A stretch of DNA of 54,094 bases from the NCBI RefSeq assembly GCF_002571385.2, contig NW_019218149.1, positions 250,884-304,977 of the forward strand, written 5' to 3'. Below are positions 36,505-49,767 of the stretch, in pieces (the stretch's first letter is position 1; every line of letters begins with the position of its first letter). This DNA comes from Stylophora pistillata (lineage: Eukaryota). The notes under the pieces were generated by a model. That model saw nothing but the letters and a program-made list of their open reading frames with translations. It was not told where the DNA came from and searched no databases. Position numbers and translations under genes: made by a program.

Positions 36505-38493
36505 NNNNNNNNNNNNNNNNNNNNNNNNNNNNNNNNNNNNNNNNNNNNNNNNNNNNNNNNNNNNNNNNNNNNNNNNNNNNNNNNNNNNNNNNNNNNNNNN
36601 NNNNNNNNNNNNNNNNNNNNNNNNNNNNNNNNNNNNNNNNNNNNNNNNNNNNNNNNNNNNNNNNNNNNNNNNNNNNNNNNNNNNNNNNNNNNNNNNNNNN
36701 NNNNNNNNNNNNNNNNNNNNNNNNNNNNNNNNNNNNNNNNNNNNNNNNNNNNNNNNNNNNNNNNNNNNNNNNNNNNNNNNNNNNNNNNNNNNNNNNNNNN
36801 NNNNNNNNNNNNNNNNNNNNNNNNNNNNNNNNNNNNNNNNNNNNNNNNNNNNNNNNNNNNNNNNNNNNNNNNNNNNNNNNNNNNNNNNNNNNNNNNNNNN
36901 NNNNNNNNNNNNNNNNNNNNNNNNNNNNNNNNNNNNNNNNNNNNNNNNNNNNNNNNNNNNNNNNNNNNNNNNNNNNNNNNNNNNNNNNNNNNNNNNNNNN
37001 NNNNNNNNNNNNNNNNNNNNNNNNNNNNNNNNNNNNNNNNNNNNNNNNNNNNNNNNNNNNNNNNNNNNNNNNNNNNNNNNNNNNNNNNNNNNNNNNNNNN
37101 NNNNNNNNNNNNNNNNNNNNNNNNNNNNNNNNNNNNNNNNNNNNNNNNNNNNNNNNNNNNNNNNNNNNNNNNNNNNNNNNNNNNNNNNNNNNNNNNNNNN
37201 NNNNNNNNNNNNNNNNNNNNNNNNNNNNNNNNNNNNNNNNNNNNNNNNNNNNNNNNNNNNNNNNNNNNNNNNNNNNNNNNNNNNAGATTACTGTGCGATG
37301 GATGTCCTCCCCTGGGGTGGGATGGGTGGGTTTATTGGGCCCGCAGTAATCGGCGCAAGCTGTTGCGGTGTCCCTGCCGGTTGGCGAAGCTGAATAAATC
37401 AATAAATCATAAATCAAGGCTCAGCGGATTTAGCACTTACAAAATTACAAAACAATATTTACTGGAATACAACTTTCACTGCCAACAAGCGATCGGATCG
37501 ACGAAAGGCCTGCAAACCACTGCAAAAGGTAAGTCATTTCTTGTTATCAATGAAGTGGGTCAGGGATGACGTCAGGCTTCAGGCCACTGATGTCACGAGG
37601 CACACGTGGTACTTTAATTCCCCGGCTTTTATTACGTAAGGTTAATGAATTTCTCCCAAAATTAGCGTTATTAATGTACTTATACCAAGCGCCAAAGAGA
37701 AAATGCATGAACATGATGAAGAACTTGAGATTTATGAGAATGCTTTTAAAAACTACTTTTAAATGAAAGGGTTCGATGATTATGTCTTTATATCATTAAA
37801 ACTCATTTCATGTCGTATTTGTGTTTTTAAGCGGTCTCTTTTAGGGGTCAAAATTTGCTTAAGCCACGCGCAGATTGGTCTCCGTTAGGGGTCACAAAAA
37901 GCTTGAGCAACGCCCAGATGGTCTCCTTTAGGGGTTAAATTCAAAATTTCCGGCGAGCATCCCCGTCTGTTTCATATGGGAGTTCCTCCCCCCCCCCCCC
38001 TTCAAAAGAGAAATGGTCGGCCCCTTACAACTTTCAGCTGTTTTGAAGAACTCTGCATGGCTCGTGCAAAGCATGCGCACGTAAATATCTTGTGTATATT
38101 ACGCTTTAATTTGTTAAAGATTTGTAATAAATAAAGCCTAATTTGAAGAAACTTTTTCCGAGCTATGTGACATCTACCTAAAAATGTTTCTATTTAACCC
38201 CTAAAAGCAATTTTAGTTGACGAACTCTATCCCACAAAATCTATATAGGTACATCAGTGCAGTCATTGTGAAGTCATAATAAGGTCTATAGTCAATATTA
38301 TTAACAATAAAGTATGTTTGTAACACCAAGTTTTCTAAATGCACATTGAAAGAGATCCCTGGATTTGGTATAAGGAATTTTTAAAAAATGTAACCCGGGC
38401 GACAAACGCAATTCCGAAAGCGAGATATTCAATGTTCAGGTTATTTGTACAAAGCCACCTTGTGCTAGTTTGAAAGTTTATCGCATTGTATTC

Positions 38494-38912: not shown

Positions 38913-40042
38913 TTACAGCCACTCACCCCCTCGGTCAAGGGAGTCTTTCCTGTCCGTGTAAGTGACCGAATCTTTCCTGTCCGTGTAACTGACCACATCT
39001 GATCCCGGGGGAGAGGTAGACGGGGTAGATTCCTTATTTTTCCCCGCGGTACGTAGTCGATCCACTGCCGACGGAAACAATCCAGCCTCGACCAACCCAA
39101 GGCCAGAATCATAACGAGGCAAAGTTGCCCCATCTGTGTGTATAGTGGGCGTCGATCCATAGTTGTTCTCCTTTGGCACTTCATTCATCTCGTATTTCGG
39201 CGGCATGGACGCTCGGTACCCATTCGGACGTCGGCTCTTTGGGTCGAACTCTTCCGAAAACGACTCGGACAAATTCTCCACACTAAACAACTCTCTTTTC
39301 ACGAGGCACTGGCATTTGAGGTAGTGCAACAAATGACGTTTGAATTCCGGGTTGTAGATGAAGAACAAAATGGGATTTATGATCGTTATTGCATACGTGA
39401 AGATGTACACGATGTTAAATACGTCTCGGAAGTAAAGTTTCTTTTCGCCATTTGCGAAATCCAAGATGAGCCACATGATCTGATGAGGGAGTAAAAAGAC
39501 GGCGAACACGATGACGTGGGCTACCATCATCCGGATGATTCTGTGGTGACGTTCTCGCCGGGCGGCGCGTTCAGGATCCAGGACCCTATAACTGAAATTT
39601 TAAGAGGCACATATCAGCCAATCAGCGGCTTGCTTAACTTTAATTTCTAATTAGCTGATTGGCTCATTTTAAGTTCTCATTGGCCCCTTGTAAAATTTTC
39701 TCTCATTTGATTGGCCAGTGTGATTACTTGGAGTTACACCACTCAATCGAAAAACGCTCTAGCAAGCAAAAGATGATGGTTATGATTTCATAATTCATTT
39801 TATTAACGGGGCCGTCATATGAGAACCGGAAGAGCTTGGCTCCCGAGAATGGCTGGCGAGCAATCTCTCTGCTGGGATGGAGAAGAAAAGGAAAGAGGAA
39901 ACCTCTTTCCTTCATTTCCCTTCCCCCTCCGCCCTGAAGATCTTCCTCACACCCAGAGGATAATATCGATCGCCATTACAGAGATAGCGATAAAGCCCAT
40001 TTACCAAGATGGTAAGAGTAAGCGGGTAAGAAAGCTTCTCCT

Positions 40043-40093
<51 letters not shown>

Positions 40094-42475
40094 TATTATT
40101 TGCCTTATTTTAACAATAAAAATATTTAATTACGGCGATAACGGTTAGAAGGCGAGGAGACCCAAGAAGTCACCGGGCTTATGGGAGAGCCACCTCACTT
40201 ACAATAATAAATCAGGTAAAGAAAAAGTGCTGCGAATGTGCAGCTTGGCCAATTTAGTGATTATTTAAGCAAAAACTCTTGCCATTTCGTCTTAAAACTG
40301 AGAAAGTTTGACGAACGAGTGACTGAAATAGGGAGAGAGTTCCAAATTTTAGGACCTTGGTAGAGAATTGTAAATTGCTTGACATTTGTACGGCACAAAT
40401 GCGTTCGACAATTACTGGCTGGTCTGGTACCATAGTTGTAAATTTGGCTATTCCTTACAAAAAGATTGAGAAGCAATGGGGCAATAAGTTATTTTCTCCA
40501 GAATGAAGAATAATGGTCCAGATCTTGAAGACCTTTCTCCCAGATTCGTATCAACAAATAACTCATTCTGTGGTCTAAAAGATAAAATGTGATATCATAA
40601 GGATTTCGGAAGTAAAGCAACTGTTTATCACCTTTGAAGACGTCCCCAGACCATCACGTAGATGACGAACAAAGCGATAAGTGGAAGGGCGTAATCCAAT
40701 AGAAACAGAGAGATGGTGTAAGCTTGGCGGCTTCCATCCGAGCTCCAATACTCGTCACATGTTTTGTTAATGTAGTTGTAATCCAAGATCAGGACATAAG
40801 GGACGACTGTGATGATGCTGGTGATCCAAATCACGAATGTGAGTACGACTGCAAGGATGAACTTCATTTGACCAAACAGGTTTCTGTAACAAAGAAAAAA
40901 AGAGCAAAGTCAAAATGCTATGCAGCTGTGGAGGGATCATTGCTGGAACCGAGGTCCCACCCTCCCCCAAGGCCGCGCTAATTGTTTTTCAGCTGAGACA
41001 ACTGGGTTCAAGAAGGGAAAAAAAAGTGACTCTCAGTCCTTATTTATCGCCTGAGGGGTGGGGGTGGGAAGATTTGGGGAGATCACGTAGCTTTTCTAGG
41101 AGGGAGGAGGACGGAGGTAGATCAGTCGTCACTAACAAGAGAATAAAGGACGGAATAAAATATATTGACAAGCAACGAGGGGGGGAGCTCTAGAATGATA
41201 CAAAGCCTTGGGGTGGGGTGGGAGTAAATTTAAACAGTATTTATTTGACGTCCTAAATTTAACCAAGCAACTTCTAGAAGATTACGTATGATGCACGATC
41301 CTCGCAGTAGATAGCGCTATTTAAGCAATAGCGAAAATCAGACCTGAAAAAAATCAGGCCTGTACGGGATTCGAACCACTGACCTCTGCGATACTAGTGC
41401 AGCGCTCTACCAATTGAGCTAACAAGCCAACTGGGAGCAGGCCGTTAAGTTGATTCGTAATAAACCCGTGAAAGTGATAAATCAGATACAATGAAATATA
41501 TGAAGTTCATATATTTTGAACTGCGGTATTAGATACGTATGATGCACGATCCTCGCAGTAGATAGCGCTATTTAAGCAATAGCGAAAATCAGACCTGAAA
41601 AAAATCAGGCCTGTACGGGATTCGAACCACTGACCTCTGCGATACTAGTGCAGCGCTCTACCAATTGAGCTAACAAGCCAACTGGGAGCAGGCCGTTAAG
41701 TTGATTCGTAATAAACCCGTGAAAGTGATAAATCAGATACAATGAAATATATGAAGTTCATATATTTTGAACTGCGGTATTAGATACGTATGATGCACGA
41801 TCCTCGCAGTAGATAGCGCTATTTAAGCAATAGCGAAAATCAGACCTGAAAAAAATCAGGCCTGTACGGGATTCGAACCACTGACCTCTGCGATACTAGT
41901 GCAGCGCTCTACCAATTGAGCTAACAAGCCAACTGGGAGCAGGCCGTTAAGTTGATTCGTAATAAACCCGTGAAAGTGATAAATCAGATACAATGAAATA
42001 TATGAACTTCATATATTTCATTGTATCTGATCTAGAAGATTATGGGTATCTTCGTTCTCAATACCACCACTAGAGAGTCACGCACTCACCTTGACACGCC
42101 ATACCATCGATGATAAGCCAGAGCCACATACGTGAACACCATAGCCTGTAACGCAACCGTCTGTAACGGATAAAGAATCTTACAGCCCCCGGCTCCAAAA
42201 GGCCACTTGTCGGAGTCTTGCGACACTGCATCAAATGGAATCGAGGCCACCACCAGAACGAGGCCAGACATGCCAAGGTTCTGCATCAGTATAATAAAAC
42301 TCTTGGCAGTTTTTCTGTGACGGCGAAACTTTCTCCACAGCGTTAAGAGCATAAAGGTGTTCGCCAGGACGCTAACTATGAAGATCGTAATGTACATGAC
42401 AAGTTTGAAGACGCGAAGGCCTTCCTGAACAGCAGCAGACTCAGTAGGAGGAGGTTCTGTGGTGGAGACGACCAT
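38913..42475 (-). CDS. Class A GPCR, neuropeptide-receptor-like, 3 coding exons, 438 aa
   Basis: Exons 42090-42475, 40632-40883, 38913-39591 (1317 nt, in phase). Motifs: ANTF (TM1), WPFGAGGCK (ECL1), LAYHRW (TM3), CDEYW (ECL2), YALPL (TM5), LLPHQI (TM6), NPILF (TM7). Confidence 0.88.
40045..40500 (-). mobile_element. LINE 3' fragment with adjacent (CAT)n microsatellite
   Basis: Peptide HLCRTNVKQFTILYQGPKIWNSLP is typical of CR1/L2 ORF2 C-termini. About 16 CAT units at 40045-40092. Confidence 0.7.
41356..41428 (-). tRNA. tRNA-Thr(AGT)-like pseudogene, copy 1
   Basis: 73-nt cloverleaf with 7-bp acceptor GGCTTGT/ACAGGCC, D stem GCTC/GAGC, anticodon loop CTAGTAT, and intact A and B boxes. The T stem has two mismatches. 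Confidence 0.6.
41607..41679 (-). tRNA. tRNA-Thr(AGT)-like pseudogene, copy 2
   Basis: Same sequence as copy 1. Confidence 0.6.
41858..41930 (-). tRNA. tRNA-Thr(AGT)-like pseudogene, copy 3
   Basis: Same sequence as copy 1. Confidence 0.6.
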
Positions 42476-45400
42476 GATGACCAGTGACCTGCTTGGAAAG
42501 ATCGAGGCGTTTATTCGCTACTTTAGGGATTTCCTTCCACGATGGGGAACAAAGAACTCACTCTAACAACCTGCCTAGTTCCCAAAGTAAGACTTCGCAG
42601 CTCAGTTGGTCACGTCACCCGACAGGGCTATCGGGAAAGTCAGTTTCCTTCTCATTCGAGACCTTTGAATTTCTTTGAATTTCAGGCTGTACTTTCAGCA
42701 ATTTCTTTCATTGCAAATTAAGCGTCAGGTTCAATTCATTTACCACTTCTCTAAGACTTTCCCACAGAACTGACAAGGCTGTTTCTCGTTTTCGAAACGA
42801 TTAGCCGGGGATTACTTCCTCTGGAATATAAGGTTTGATAAGTGAATACTGAAGAGGTCACACACGTTTATTATTTACTTTTCGTCTGGCAATTGAACTT
42901 ATTTGACGAGATCCCAGTCAGCTAACAACGATTACGAGGCTTAAATCCTCTCCGTCTTTCGTTTAATGACAAACACTTGTAATGGTATTCAAATGAACTC
43001 GAATGAATGGAAAACCTTAGACCAAAAAATTATTTCTGAGAGGGAAAAACTTGATTGTTAAAATCAAATGGAAGGAAGGAAAAGTGCCGTGGAAAAAATT
43101 GAGTCACGTCGCGTGCAAAAATTACTCTTCTTCCAAAATAAGATTTACAGCAAACCGGAAAACTACCTGAAATCGCTTTGAAATAATTCCCTTTAATAAC
43201 AGTACAATACTATATTGTTCTTTATGCCTTGATAGATCACCACAGTAAAAGTAAATGGCATCTGCGGTAAATTAAATAATTGGATATGGATGAAACTATT
43301 ACTCTATTAAGTGCTCAGTCGCAGTCATGACCACACAAACAATAAGAGCAGGAAATAAAAAGCACTCGATAGAAGTTTTTATCCTTAGTTTTAGAAATAG
43401 CACACTTCGCTTCTCCGGCTGTTTTACAACAGAAGCCTAGCTTAGTTTCCGGAAAACATTGGCCCGAAGATTATCTGTCATTCCACCTACCTCAGAAAGG
43501 AAGTGTATAACTTGAATTTAAGAGTTCTTTTGCAACAAAAACTCAGTATAAAGGGCAATCTATTTCCGCCAAATAATGTAAACTGTATTTTCTAACTCTG
43601 ATCGTCACAAACACAGATAGCGTTTGTACGTGCTATGAGCTATAGAAAAGGTTTCAAAATTGCTTAGGGTTAGCAGTTCTATACAGCACATCTGGACGTC
43701 TTTCAATTCACTTGGCGGTCGATCAACAACGCCTTTTTAAAATCAATGCCAGGTGATTTAAGGACAAGAACCAGCAAGTCCATAAAACTTAATTTATTCG
43801 GTTCAGTTTACCGATAAACATGCCAAATTGATTCGAAAAAGAGAATACATCACACGAAAAATTCAAAAGAATTCCAAGTGAATAATTCGAAAAGGCCGAC
43901 GGACTTCCACTATTTTCTCATCCACGTATTTCATTTGTTATTTAAAAAAATTTTCTAAGACTCGTAAATAGCCGGGTGAAATGTTGAGAAAATAGAAAAT
44001 TAGCTCTTCTACAATTTCCTATTTCGCCTAAAAAAAATAAAGTTAAAAAAACCACGGGTCATAAACATTTCCAGACTTACCTATCAAGGTTTATTCAAGG
44101 AAAGGACGAGGAGAGTTGCTAGCTATCGTCTTATGGTCCATCTCATCTCGCTATCATTGTAACCAAATTGCTTATCGCTGCCGCACAAGAAAATCCTAGC
44201 TTGCTACTTTTCATGGTCGTACCGCTGGCCTTTAGTGGAGAAAACCTCTTTGAAAGCTGATGTAAATATTATCTTGATGGCGTGGTGCAAAACAAGCCGT
44301 AAACATTATTCTAATATACCGTTATGGTGTTTACAGACTGCATAGTTATTAACCGGCATTAGTTATTAACCTTTGTCATGTGTCTATAAAGATGACGGGA
44401 GCCCCCTACCCAAGGACGAAGATCTGAAGAACTGCTGGCATTCAAGACTTTTTCCTCTTAAATTTGAGGAACTAAAAATACTACCACGCGAAGAAACATG
44501 TCTGAGCAAACCCCCAAAAATTTCCCCCGAAGGCGAAAAAGCTGCCATTTCAAAAATGTATATAAAGTTCTACTATACGAAGATTTTGCAACGGAAGTGA
44601 ACTCTTAAAATTGACTCAAAATTATGTCACCGTAAGATAGAAGGTTGAAATCTACATGGTAGAAGCACGCATTAGCTTTCTAACATTGCGTGATTGTCGG
44701 ACGAAAAGAGATTTGAAATAAGATATCTCTGAATAACAACATGTAAAATGCGACAAATTGTAAGAATGCAGGACGATAAGTTAATCTTCACCAAATAGCC
44801 GGTCTACGTGTACTATTAAATATTTCCAAACCATATTTTTCTCTGTGAGATAAACTATTTTCGAGATTTGAAACAAACTGAGGAGAGAAAAAATTTCTCA
44901 CTTATGCATTAAGATGAACATCTAGCACAAAAAAGGCGTATTGTTGATTATTGAGGCTGTCACCTGTATGGTGTCATATGTAAAGTACATGCTTTTAGCA
45001 AAAATTGTCAGTTCCCGGTTGACTCAAGAAGGAAATTGTGCTGTCTTTTCTGATCAAACTACCTTCTTAAACCTGTATTTACATTAAAAAGGACTTAACA
45101 GTGTTTCCTTGTTACGATCTTTGGGTAAAGTCGACTTGAAAGGCGAAATGCGAAGTATATCTAAACGCTTACTGCTCTCAGAGCTTCTCGTTAAATGTAA
45201 ACCTGGCACTTATCTAAAGGCACAGCATCAAATACATAGATATCTTTATGTTCTCAAAGAGCTTAACTTCGAAGAAGCAAACCTGGCAAGTGTACAAATA
45301 TGTTCACGGTATGAAAATAACTCAACTCTTGCTTTCTCAATTCGCTCGCAGTTTGCTAGATTCAAGAACAGATGCATTTGAGGCAGACTCGTCAACTCGC

Positions 45401-47867: not shown

Positions 47868-48626
47868 TACGGTGGCCCAGAAGGCTCAACGCAAACAAAA
47901 AATATACTGCAGCAAATAAAAAATATACTTCAGCAAATAAAAAAAATCAAAACGCAAAGAAAATAAGTACTGCAGCAAATAAAAAACTGCAACGCAAACA
48001 AAAGAATACTGCAGCAAATAAAAAATGCAACGCAAACAAAAAAAATTGGAACGCAACGCCAAGGAAGACGGGGTAATAGTTCTTAGTTTCCCGCCAAAAC
48101 AGCATGAACTGGAACTCGCTTTTTGTCATGGACGAAAGCCATCTGCGTAGGATTATAGAAGATTACTTTCATCAAGGGTATGAAAATGGAGTTATTATCG
48201 TTTTTGTAAAGGAACAGCATGGTACTGTCATACGTTCGCTGCAAAACATGGTTTCGGAAAGGCGAACAAGCAAAGGATGGAACGAGTGTTGACAGGAAAC
48301 TAACAACTATTACCCAGTCTTCCTTGGCGTTGCGTTCCAATTTTTTTTTTTTTGCATTTTCTCTTTTTTTTTGGTTTACGTTGCATATTTTATTTGCTGC
48401 AGTATTTTTGTGTGTGTGTGTTGCATTTTTTAATTTGCTGCGGTACTTTTTTTCCTTGCGTTTTGATTTTTTATTTGCTGCAGTATATTTTTTATCTGCT
48501 GCAGTATATTTTTTATTTGCTGCAGTATATTTTTTATTTGCTGCAGTATAGTTTTTTTTGCTGCAGTATATTTTTTATTTGCTGCAGTGTATTTTTTGTT
48601 TGCGTTGAGCCTTCTGGGCCACCGTG
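47868..48626 (+). mobile_element. Non-autonomous IS3EU-like DNA transposon with long repetitive TIRs and 6-bp TSD
   Basis: Termini TACGGTGGCCCAGAAGGCTCAACGCAAAC and GTTTGCGTTGAGCCTTCTGGGCCACCGTG. CAAGAG is duplicated at 47862-47867 and 48627-48632. Arms contain 21-bp subrepeats. Core peptide MDESHLRRIIEDYFHQGY...QHG resembles a transposase N-terminus. Confidence 0.75.
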
Positions 48627-49767
48627 CAAGAGCCATAATTGAGACAATTACTTTTACGTTGTAAGCGTAACGCAGAATTCAAACCCTTGGGCTTACTAGT
48701 CCGTAGTCCCTACTTTTCGAGCGCCTCACTCATTGTACTTCCGCAGCGCATCAACGTCAATCCCCAAAAGCTCCCCGCACCGCGCTAACATCAATTTTTT
48801 TCATTGATTTTTTTTTTATTCGCGCGACGGACTTCGCCGAAAAGGAGAGACTTCTCCTAGTCTATTGCTGCGAAGATCACTTTGTTATTCATAAGCATCT
48901 AAGTTACACAGCTGTCTCTTCAGCCGCTAGACGAGCCGACGGAAAATGTCATTTCATTTGGGACCAGAAAATTCAAATTTATAAAATGAAAGATGTTTGC
49001 GCACATTTTCAAGGTTTCCTGATCCTCTCCAATGTGCGGTTTTTTATAAGGCAGAACCACAACGAAGTCTTGGAAAAAATGTTTTTGTGAACTTCTTTTA
49101 AATCCATTGGACAGACAGAGCAGTATAATTAAAGAAAGGTCAATATTTCTTCGTCGGTCTTGCTGTCACTCAGTTGACAAAGGAGTTTGCGGTTGTTTAA
49201 TCCAAATCGATAGTTTTTTTGGCGGAAATTGACAGGAACAACAGAAAACTGATGTCATCTGGAGAGTGTGTAAAAACGCACTGTATGCACAGCATTTGGC
49301 CTGATGGTGGGACCCCTTGAAAAACTAATAAAAAAATTTAGTTCGCGTCATATCAAGACGGTCGTTTGCATAAGTAAAGCGCAAATCACTTGGAAGACTA
49401 ATTTTACAAAACCTCCAAATTTTCATGTGAGTTTGTATGTAAAAAAGACTAAGCCCCACTAAACAATAATAGCCAATCAGACTGAAGAAAATTTTATGCA
49501 AATAATCATTCACTGGGGGGGTGTCGATGGTCGTAAACACAAACTTGGCTTTCACCACGACGCTGTCTTTTAATTCGATCTTTTGGAAATGACCGAGCTT
49601 TCACTAAACGGAATAGCGATGATAACATAGGGAAAGATTGCTGTCACCTGTGATCGAAATGCTTCCACTGTACAAGAAAGGCTTTGTAAGTAATGGATAG
49701 CTCTCTTCGTTATTTTATATCCCGCACATTTGTTAGCGAATGTAACGGCGTCGAGGAATCCTCGACG

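Follow-up and report, generated by a model that had tools for sequence, protein, structure and literature searches.

A tRNA-bearing tandem repeat of Stylophora pistillata, probably a non-autonomous retroelement copied by Penelope-like enzymes

Endonuclease-bearing Penelope-like elements (PLEs) and their non-autonomous derivatives, such as MRC1 of Chlamys, are described in the available sections of PMC8557442, PMC11167929 and PMC3846280 as having two 3′ ends separated by a tail, a head-to-head, 5′-truncated arm, junction palindromes, TSDs of about 8–15 bp, and multicopy head-to-tail insertions. In the accessible part of PMC11167929, a PLE reverse transcriptase (RT) is reported to nick both DNA strands and to begin synthesis at two sites within the RNA; the interval between these sites is the tail, described there as unique to PLEs, and hammerhead cleavage is reported to be dispensable in vitro. 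Inverted 5′-truncated copies, tails, and non-autonomous multicopy derivatives are documented in the accessible text of PMC8557442, as are, there and in PMC3846280, junction palindromes and 8–10-bp TSDs. Metazoan non-LTR retrozymes appear in the excerpts available (PMC7229834; bioRxiv 10.64898/2026.07.22.740005) as dispersed tandem 220–250-bp units in corals, lacking LTR, PBS and PPT, with TSDs longer than 4 bp, a stable self-paired fold, and proposed mobilization by PLEs; a type I hammerhead is their defining feature. The TRIMp3 elements Helenus, Ajax and Cassandra, as covered by the available part of PMC10886601, are non-autonomous, carry a small-RNA-derived Pol III module in a repeated unit, and form tandem arrays. 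SINE2 elements combine tRNA-derived A and B boxes with high copy number and retroposition with TSDs.

Here we describe a high-copy non-coding repeat of Stylophora pistillata that shares these traits in part with each system. It departs from PLEs in having neither an ORF nor a hammerhead, in carrying an internal tRNA module followed by a T run, and in showing no 3′ homology to the sampled PLEs. The hammerhead that defines retrozymes is absent and a tRNA module is present instead; tRNA is unmentioned in the available part of the bioRxiv paper on retrozymes. Whereas TRIMp3 elements are of LTR type, with PBS, PPT and 4–5-bp TSDs, the tRNA units abut without an internal region and occur as inverted, two-ended insertions with 12–13-bp TSDs. 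Unlike in SINE2, the tRNA is internal, the 5′ ends vary, a LINE-like or A-rich tail is absent, and the copies are tandem and inverted. The family falls outside the definitions of SINEs, TRIMp3 and hammerhead retrozymes, and in our judgment it is probably a non-autonomous retroelement copied by a PLE RT and GIY-YIG endonuclease. We found no tRNA-derived, PLE-dependent element in the literature searched; given its abundance, the repeat may be listed in Repbase or Dfam under another label.

Architecture of the insertion

The window (the whole stretch analyzed, 54,094 nt of contig NW_019218149.1) holds the insertion at 41273–42042. Unit positions (u) are counted along the plus strand from u1 = 41283.

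41273–41284, left TSD TCTAGAAGATTA, 12 bp, its final two bases shared with the unit start
41285–42006, minus strand, main arm of about 2.9 units, its template-sense 3′ end being the fixed A end (about u1–3)
41283–41533, minus strand, unit 1, 251 bp, u1–u251
41482–41533, minus strand, "tail" between the A and B ends, about 50 nt, u200–251, containing palindrome P3
41494–41516, palindrome P3, u212–234, a hot spot of inversion junctions
41534–41784, minus strand, unit 2, same sequence as unit 1
41785–42006, minus strand, unit 3, broken off at u222 within the palindrome
42007–42030, plus strand, inverted arm, 24 bp, exact reverse complement of u200–223, ending at the fixed B end
42031–42042, right TSD TCTAGAAGATTA, 12 bp
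40886–42091, minus strand, host gene context, with splice sites assigned by eye: a likely intron of a rhodopsin-type GPCR gene
49767–50065, second inverted copy of the family, more diverged and older, A end at 50065, TSD not found, 7.7 kb from the trimer

TRF reported the array at 41283–42018 with a period of 251, 2.9 copies (as assembled) and 99% matches. The original prediction had placed three essentially identical 251-bp units within a single 12-bp TSD. The TSD and two full, identical units are present, while the third unit is partial, reaching only u222 (42006). The left junction is spanned by contigs from two further samples.

The right end had also been read as a perfect fold-back. Its arms are exact (41984–42006 and 42008–42030), formed by the inverted arm and the end of the main arm, but they do not mark a special terminus. 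The palindrome at u212–234, present in every unit, supplies about half of each hairpin arm and contains the fold-back point. The same junction occurs at 17 genomic places, and nine of the ten such copies mapped at both ends carry one A and one B end, so the hairpin represents the shortest form of an inverted arm, joined at the unit's own palindrome.

The coding stretches that flank the insertion lie at 42092–42517 and 40631–40885, and the main arm runs in the same direction as the gene. As a side observation, three coding stretches of the minus-strand rhodopsin-family GPCR (7tm_1) lie within 38913–42517. Elsewhere in the window, two 402-bp tandem arrays (11–1148 and 1762–3093; sub-unit about 194–208 bp) have consensus sequences that are apparently opposite orientations of one family, and two arrays of 21-bp period lie in opposite orientation at 47887–48603, in a MITE-like arrangement.

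Ends of the copies across genomes

A 25-mer of the unit had 7,076 exact matches in the 398-Mb genome, compared with 0 for the control. Subfamilies measure 245–251 bp, and older relatives retain 70–80% identity. The copies are dispersed tandem units, in the 150–450 bp size range and without LTR features, with flanks that are unrelated between copies; arrays reach about 11 units, pure unit after unit. Many assembly gaps fall at arrays, so unit counts may be wrong.

Ends were mapped in 40 contig-order stretches (the first 100 listed matches minus the last 6), 33 best-match loci, 13 hairpin loci, and 5 sister-subfamily loci. On the tRNA-sense strand the outer ends are 3′ ends, and most map to one of two sites, A (about u1) or B (about u200), B being A plus about 50 nt; the contig-order set gave 39 A, 21 B and 12 others. 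Both ends were visible in 49 inverted copies, of which 36 were A+B, one was A+A, one was B+B, and 11 had one end assigned to neither site; none was tail-to-tail. In the contig-order set, 25 of the 43 copies with both ends visible were inverted, and a TSD of at least 9 bp accompanied 19 of these 25 compared with 3 of the 18 one-armed copies, leaving 15 of the 43 one-armed and without a TSD. TSD length was 12–13 bp in 26 of 36 cases. Outer ends abut the TSD directly, with no A-rich or LINE-derived 3′ tail.

Inner junctions are scattered (n = 130): 24 lie at the P3 palindrome, 10 at u70–72, and 2 at the tRNA start (u143–150), which rules out a fixed RNA 5′ end at that start. The arms starting at u70–72 begin 2–4 nt past the discriminator, and since about half are fold-backs at the T7 hairpin and the interval was picked after the data were seen, this pile is perhaps a product of microhomology and not an RNase Z end. 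In 33 gap-free inverted copies with TSDs (35 examined minus 2 with gaps; L043 excluded beforehand), the longest non-unit stretch was at most 31 nt and no ORF fragment lay on the 5′ side. Separately, 150–270 bp of foreign DNA sits between head-to-head arms at L043:1642–1792 and L053:2120–2460, possibly captured by template switching.

A gapped-pattern search of metagenomes yielded at least 120 loci. Among the matches listed, 83 were one-armed, 37 inverted and 0 tail-to-tail; contig ends cut 16 of the 37 inverted loci, and 9 of the other 21 had a 10–14-bp TSD. In three families among these matches, the ends gather in two piles separated by about 50 nt. With the inverted loci, the paired piles indicate an anatomy common to several diverged families.

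These maps bear on two other explanations. One is a conventional SINE with a tRNA head, mobilized by a LINE and secondarily duplicated in tandem; it would bring a tRNA-like module with A and B boxes and a TSD of LINE-like length, and L1 twin priming yields 5′ inversions. However, only the two inner (5′) ends noted above lie at the tRNA start, both outer ends are fixed internal sites lacking an A-rich tail, and the T7 run follows the tRNA directly. A genuine tRNA-headed SINE of this genome (L342–L350), with its fixed 5′ start, looks quite different. The end maps of genome and metagenome copies already contradict the SINE explanation, which we regard as exceedingly improbable. Copies of that SINE were observed at L342, L344–L347, L349 and L350, and next to an N run near window position 37285 there is sequence similar to the 3′ part of this SINE.

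A DNA-level origin (a Helitron/Helentron-type element, a MITE, tandem tRNA genes or a satellite, with the trimer possibly an assembly artefact) is highly improbable. Helentron-derived elements have terminal hairpins and tandem internal repeats, and the gaps at arrays leave unit counts in doubt. Yet TSDs of 12–13 bp are tied to inverted copies, inner junctions vary, outer ends obey the A+B rule, and copies are dispersed among unrelated flanks. Mismatches in the T stem and anticodon stem speak against working tRNA genes, and unit-to-unit joints in raw reads against an artefact. Copy number and end maps thus support the predicted young, non-autonomous, non-SINE element with PLE-type integration. 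Its 3′ ends are fixed, its 5′ ends vary, and poly-A is absent, the opposite of the fixed tRNA start and tail by which the original prediction would have been refuted.

PLEs of the same genome

Searches of the genome with the GIY-YIG family and PLE proteins gave 90 PLE loci, sorted by eye into about ten families, all with a C-terminal endonuclease and Naiad not among them. Young PLEs with a C-terminal GIY-YIG domain are present. Family 1 has two 3′ ends separated by about 95 nt; two inverted copies among its 21 loci carry TSDs, both of 11 bp. Family 3 has a 62-nt tail, and 16 chosen inverted copies comprised 13 A+B and 3 B+B, with seven TSDs of 11–15 bp. The tail of the tRNA unit, about 50 nt, exceeds the 30–40 bp of the published reports and is inside the range of the same-genome PLEs. 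A minimal hammerhead-like motif precedes A by about 90 nt in both PLE families; what precedes A in the tRNA unit, at a distance of 73 nt, is the 3′ end of the tRNA. This two-ended anatomy, shared with PLEs of the same genome and with published PLE features, indicates that the tRNA-unit family works like a PLE at integration, and PLE-type integration is well supported.

Several observations concern these PLEs themselves. The roughly ten families (L100–L120, L366–L385) range from young to old, have C-terminal GIY-YIG domains, and carry minimal hammerhead cores of the forms CUGAAGA, CCGACGA and CUGAGGA. One family-3 copy is nested inside the pLTR of another family (L376). In short inverted family-3 copies (L172–L191, a sample selected for shortness), most inner breakpoints coincide with the 5′ boundary of the hammerhead-like motif, 81–96 nt upstream of A, and some breakpoints lie near 60 nt.

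Integration of the tRNA unit could then proceed as follows. The template would be the tRNA-sense strand. The enzyme would nick both DNA strands 12–13 bp apart, and cDNA would be primed internally, from A at one nick and from B at the other. The two cDNAs would be joined head to head through microhomology, often at the unit's own hairpins; in the window, synthesis from B would have ended within palindrome P3 after 24 nt, which would account for the terminal hairpin. With less confidence, tandem arms may arise by rolling round a unit-length circle or by copying along a multimer, between which we see about even chances. With similar caution, the tRNA module may contribute Pol III boxes, and possibly one processing site per unit, at the place that the hammerhead occupies in a PLE pLTR.

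It might be supposed that the unit is simply the pLTR of an autonomous PLE, for example Naiad, and the arrays truncated or solo-pLTR insertions. The end anatomy matches PLE pLTRs, and family 3 produces thousands of short pLTR-only insertions. The available text of PMC8557442 places Naiads, which lack a canonical HHR, in a stony coral. Against this, blastn of the unit and an nhmmer profile of its non-tRNA part returned only stand-alone family copies from the 90 PLE loci, with no pLTR homology, and when 90 unit loci and the window were searched by tblastn with a PLE protein, all matches were unlinked. No autonomous PLE carrying the unit was found among the sampled loci, whose 3′ ends lack unit homology and which represent part of the PLE families of the genome. 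Furthermore, arrays of up to about 11 units are pure, and the 33 intact copies hold no 5′ ORF fragment. We consider a pLTR origin quite unlikely.

Family 3 was examined as a partner by way of a recurrent insertion site and set aside. One position in the family-3 pLTR, about 20–30 nt upstream of the A end, has received copies of the tRNA unit again and again, with 16 + 7 junction matches against 5,884 sites, in both orientations and from different subfamilies (e.g., L016, L033, L061, L141–L156, L386–L392). The site ranks in the top 0.9% of window positions under a matrix built from 28 other targets, and the A end of family 3 itself occurred there 0 times in the one orientation searched. Given both results, the insertions are no evidence of partnership.

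The tRNA-derived module and its RNA

The features of the unit that bear on its RNA are as follows.

41356–41428, minus strand, tRNA-derived module of unit 1, with A- and B-box-like motifs, a 7-bp acceptor stem, two T-stem mismatches and an A31–C39 mismatch
41607–41679, minus strand, tRNA-derived module of unit 2 (ARAGORN, Rfam)
41858–41930, minus strand, tRNA-derived module of unit 3 (ARAGORN, Rfam)
41343–41358, minus strand, P4 hairpin with the T7 run, overlapping the acceptor 3′ strand, the T run kept in all aligned families
41315–41333, minus strand, P2 hairpin, 7 bp with a 5-nt loop, two-sided changes at 5 of 7 pairs across families

ARAGORN and Rfam call the tRNA-like gene at three places, internal to each unit as predicted (u74–146, minus strand, anticodon AGT, 48.9 bits in Rfam), and the T7 run lies within the described CCTGA-T7-CAGG hairpin. 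The A- and B-box-like motifs are conserved across the aligned families. The anticodon is AGT here and GGT in older and foreign families. Two patterns for host tRNA genes, used to seek the source tRNA, yielded family variants and a SINE, so the Thr label depends only on this drifting anticodon; the module may also resemble tRNA-Ile. T-stem pairs 50–64 and 51–63 are broken in F1–F3, the most abundant subfamilies, and pair 31–39 is open in 19 of 20 aligned rows. The module has neither the intact cloverleaf nor the stable anticodon of a functional tRNA gene. One unit (L019:592–829) has its T arm joined to the anti-T segment that lies upstream, apparently by template switching between these two similar sequences.

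The tRNA-sense strand folds better than shuffled sequences (z of −5.9 as a linear molecule), and in circular form it gives a z of −5.4, compared with −2.8 for the other strand. Over 20 rows, pairing in the cloverleaf and downstream stems reaches 90.7%, and the pairs show 41 two-sided changes where shuffles give 13.3; two acceptor pairs and five of the seven P2 pairs are among those with two-sided changes. As the rows are hand-picked kin and the structure was drawn from the same sequences, this covariation is suggestive and carries no probability. P1 (CUGCG/CGCAG) is nearly invariant across families, and P2 is likely part of the element recognized by the RT. A competing fold that would mask the D and T arms lacks support from covariation: it is 87.5% paired but has only four two-sided pairs, a number matched by 263 of 500 shuffles.

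The RNA data give a diffuse picture. Two runs placed 10,282 and 4,898 reads on one unit, about equally in both directions; 71–72% of these reads continue into unlike sequence, and none fell on the left flank. No pile of read ends occurred at any unit position in the two runs. No discrete template RNA is thus seen. The unit RNA looks like read-through of many copies, which is compatible with either the presence or the absence of a small circle. The unit-to-unit joints in raw reads fit a circle and a tandem transcript alike, and variants within arrays gave a mixed outcome. A unit-only template is favored by the 33 gap-free inverted copies described above and by arrays in which all units of both arms share diagnostic changes (L053, with 7 units; L352). 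Against it stand the foreign DNA at L043 and L053 and a mixture of variants in some young arrays, the same variants being found again in single units of other arrays; such a mixture misfits one circular template unless the assembly has mixed copies. The conserved T run is puzzling: were Pol III to stop there, the 80-nt product would lack both A and B, and the template would have to come from read-through or from Pol II. In the available part of PMC10886601, Cassandra keeps its Pol III terminators and reads past them, its transcript starting in one LTR and ending in the next.

A hammerhead-less retrozyme with an undescribed self-cleaving ribozyme in the P2/P1/P3 region, the tRNA serving only as promoter, would be compatible with PLE mobilization; the one difference would be the way in which the template is cleaved. 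The family resembles coral retrozymes in the size of its units, in its tandem arrays and in its low GC (PMC7229834, in the part available), the sense strand has the z-scores given above in linear and circular form, and P2 covaries strongly beside the near-invariant P1. On the other hand, Rfam models matched no ribozyme family up to an E-value of 5 in the window and none in six family representatives, and a search for hammerhead-core patterns found none on either strand, in agreement with the originally reported lack of CUGANGA. The two RT start sites in the P2/P1/P3 region would explain its conservation, and the RNA reads show no end pile. We judge such a ribozyme unlikely.

We also entertain, as a tentative and rather doubtful extension of the PLE reading, that these are coral-wide, ribozyme-free retrozymes. 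RNase Z/P would cut the tRNA mimic once per unit, the RNA would be circularized, and a PLE RT would roll from two fixed starts, and the T7 hairpin, together with the anti-D/anti-T segments upstream, would switch the RNA between a fold for processing and a fold for templating. An RNA-level role for the module is favored by covariation in the acceptor stem and by the arm starts that cluster immediately 3′ of the tRNA. The broken T stem of the abundant subfamilies, the predicted non-cloverleaf fold (acceptor, D and T stems have a predicted probability near 0 in the circular monomer), and the absent RNA-end piles speak against it.

Coral annotations will miscall such copies as tRNA-Thr genes. The thousands of short, young copies constitute a record of the PLE integration reaction, in which the near-obligatory rule of one A and one B end implies an ordered two-primer mechanism. 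If copying by PLE enzymes is the true reading, PLEs have SINE-like parasites of their own, and a hammerhead-less family that reaches thousands of copies would bear on the role of the hammerhead in PLEs. Should the ribozyme-free retrozyme reading also be true, the family would be the PLE counterpart of SINEs, with tRNA mimicry replacing the hammerhead.
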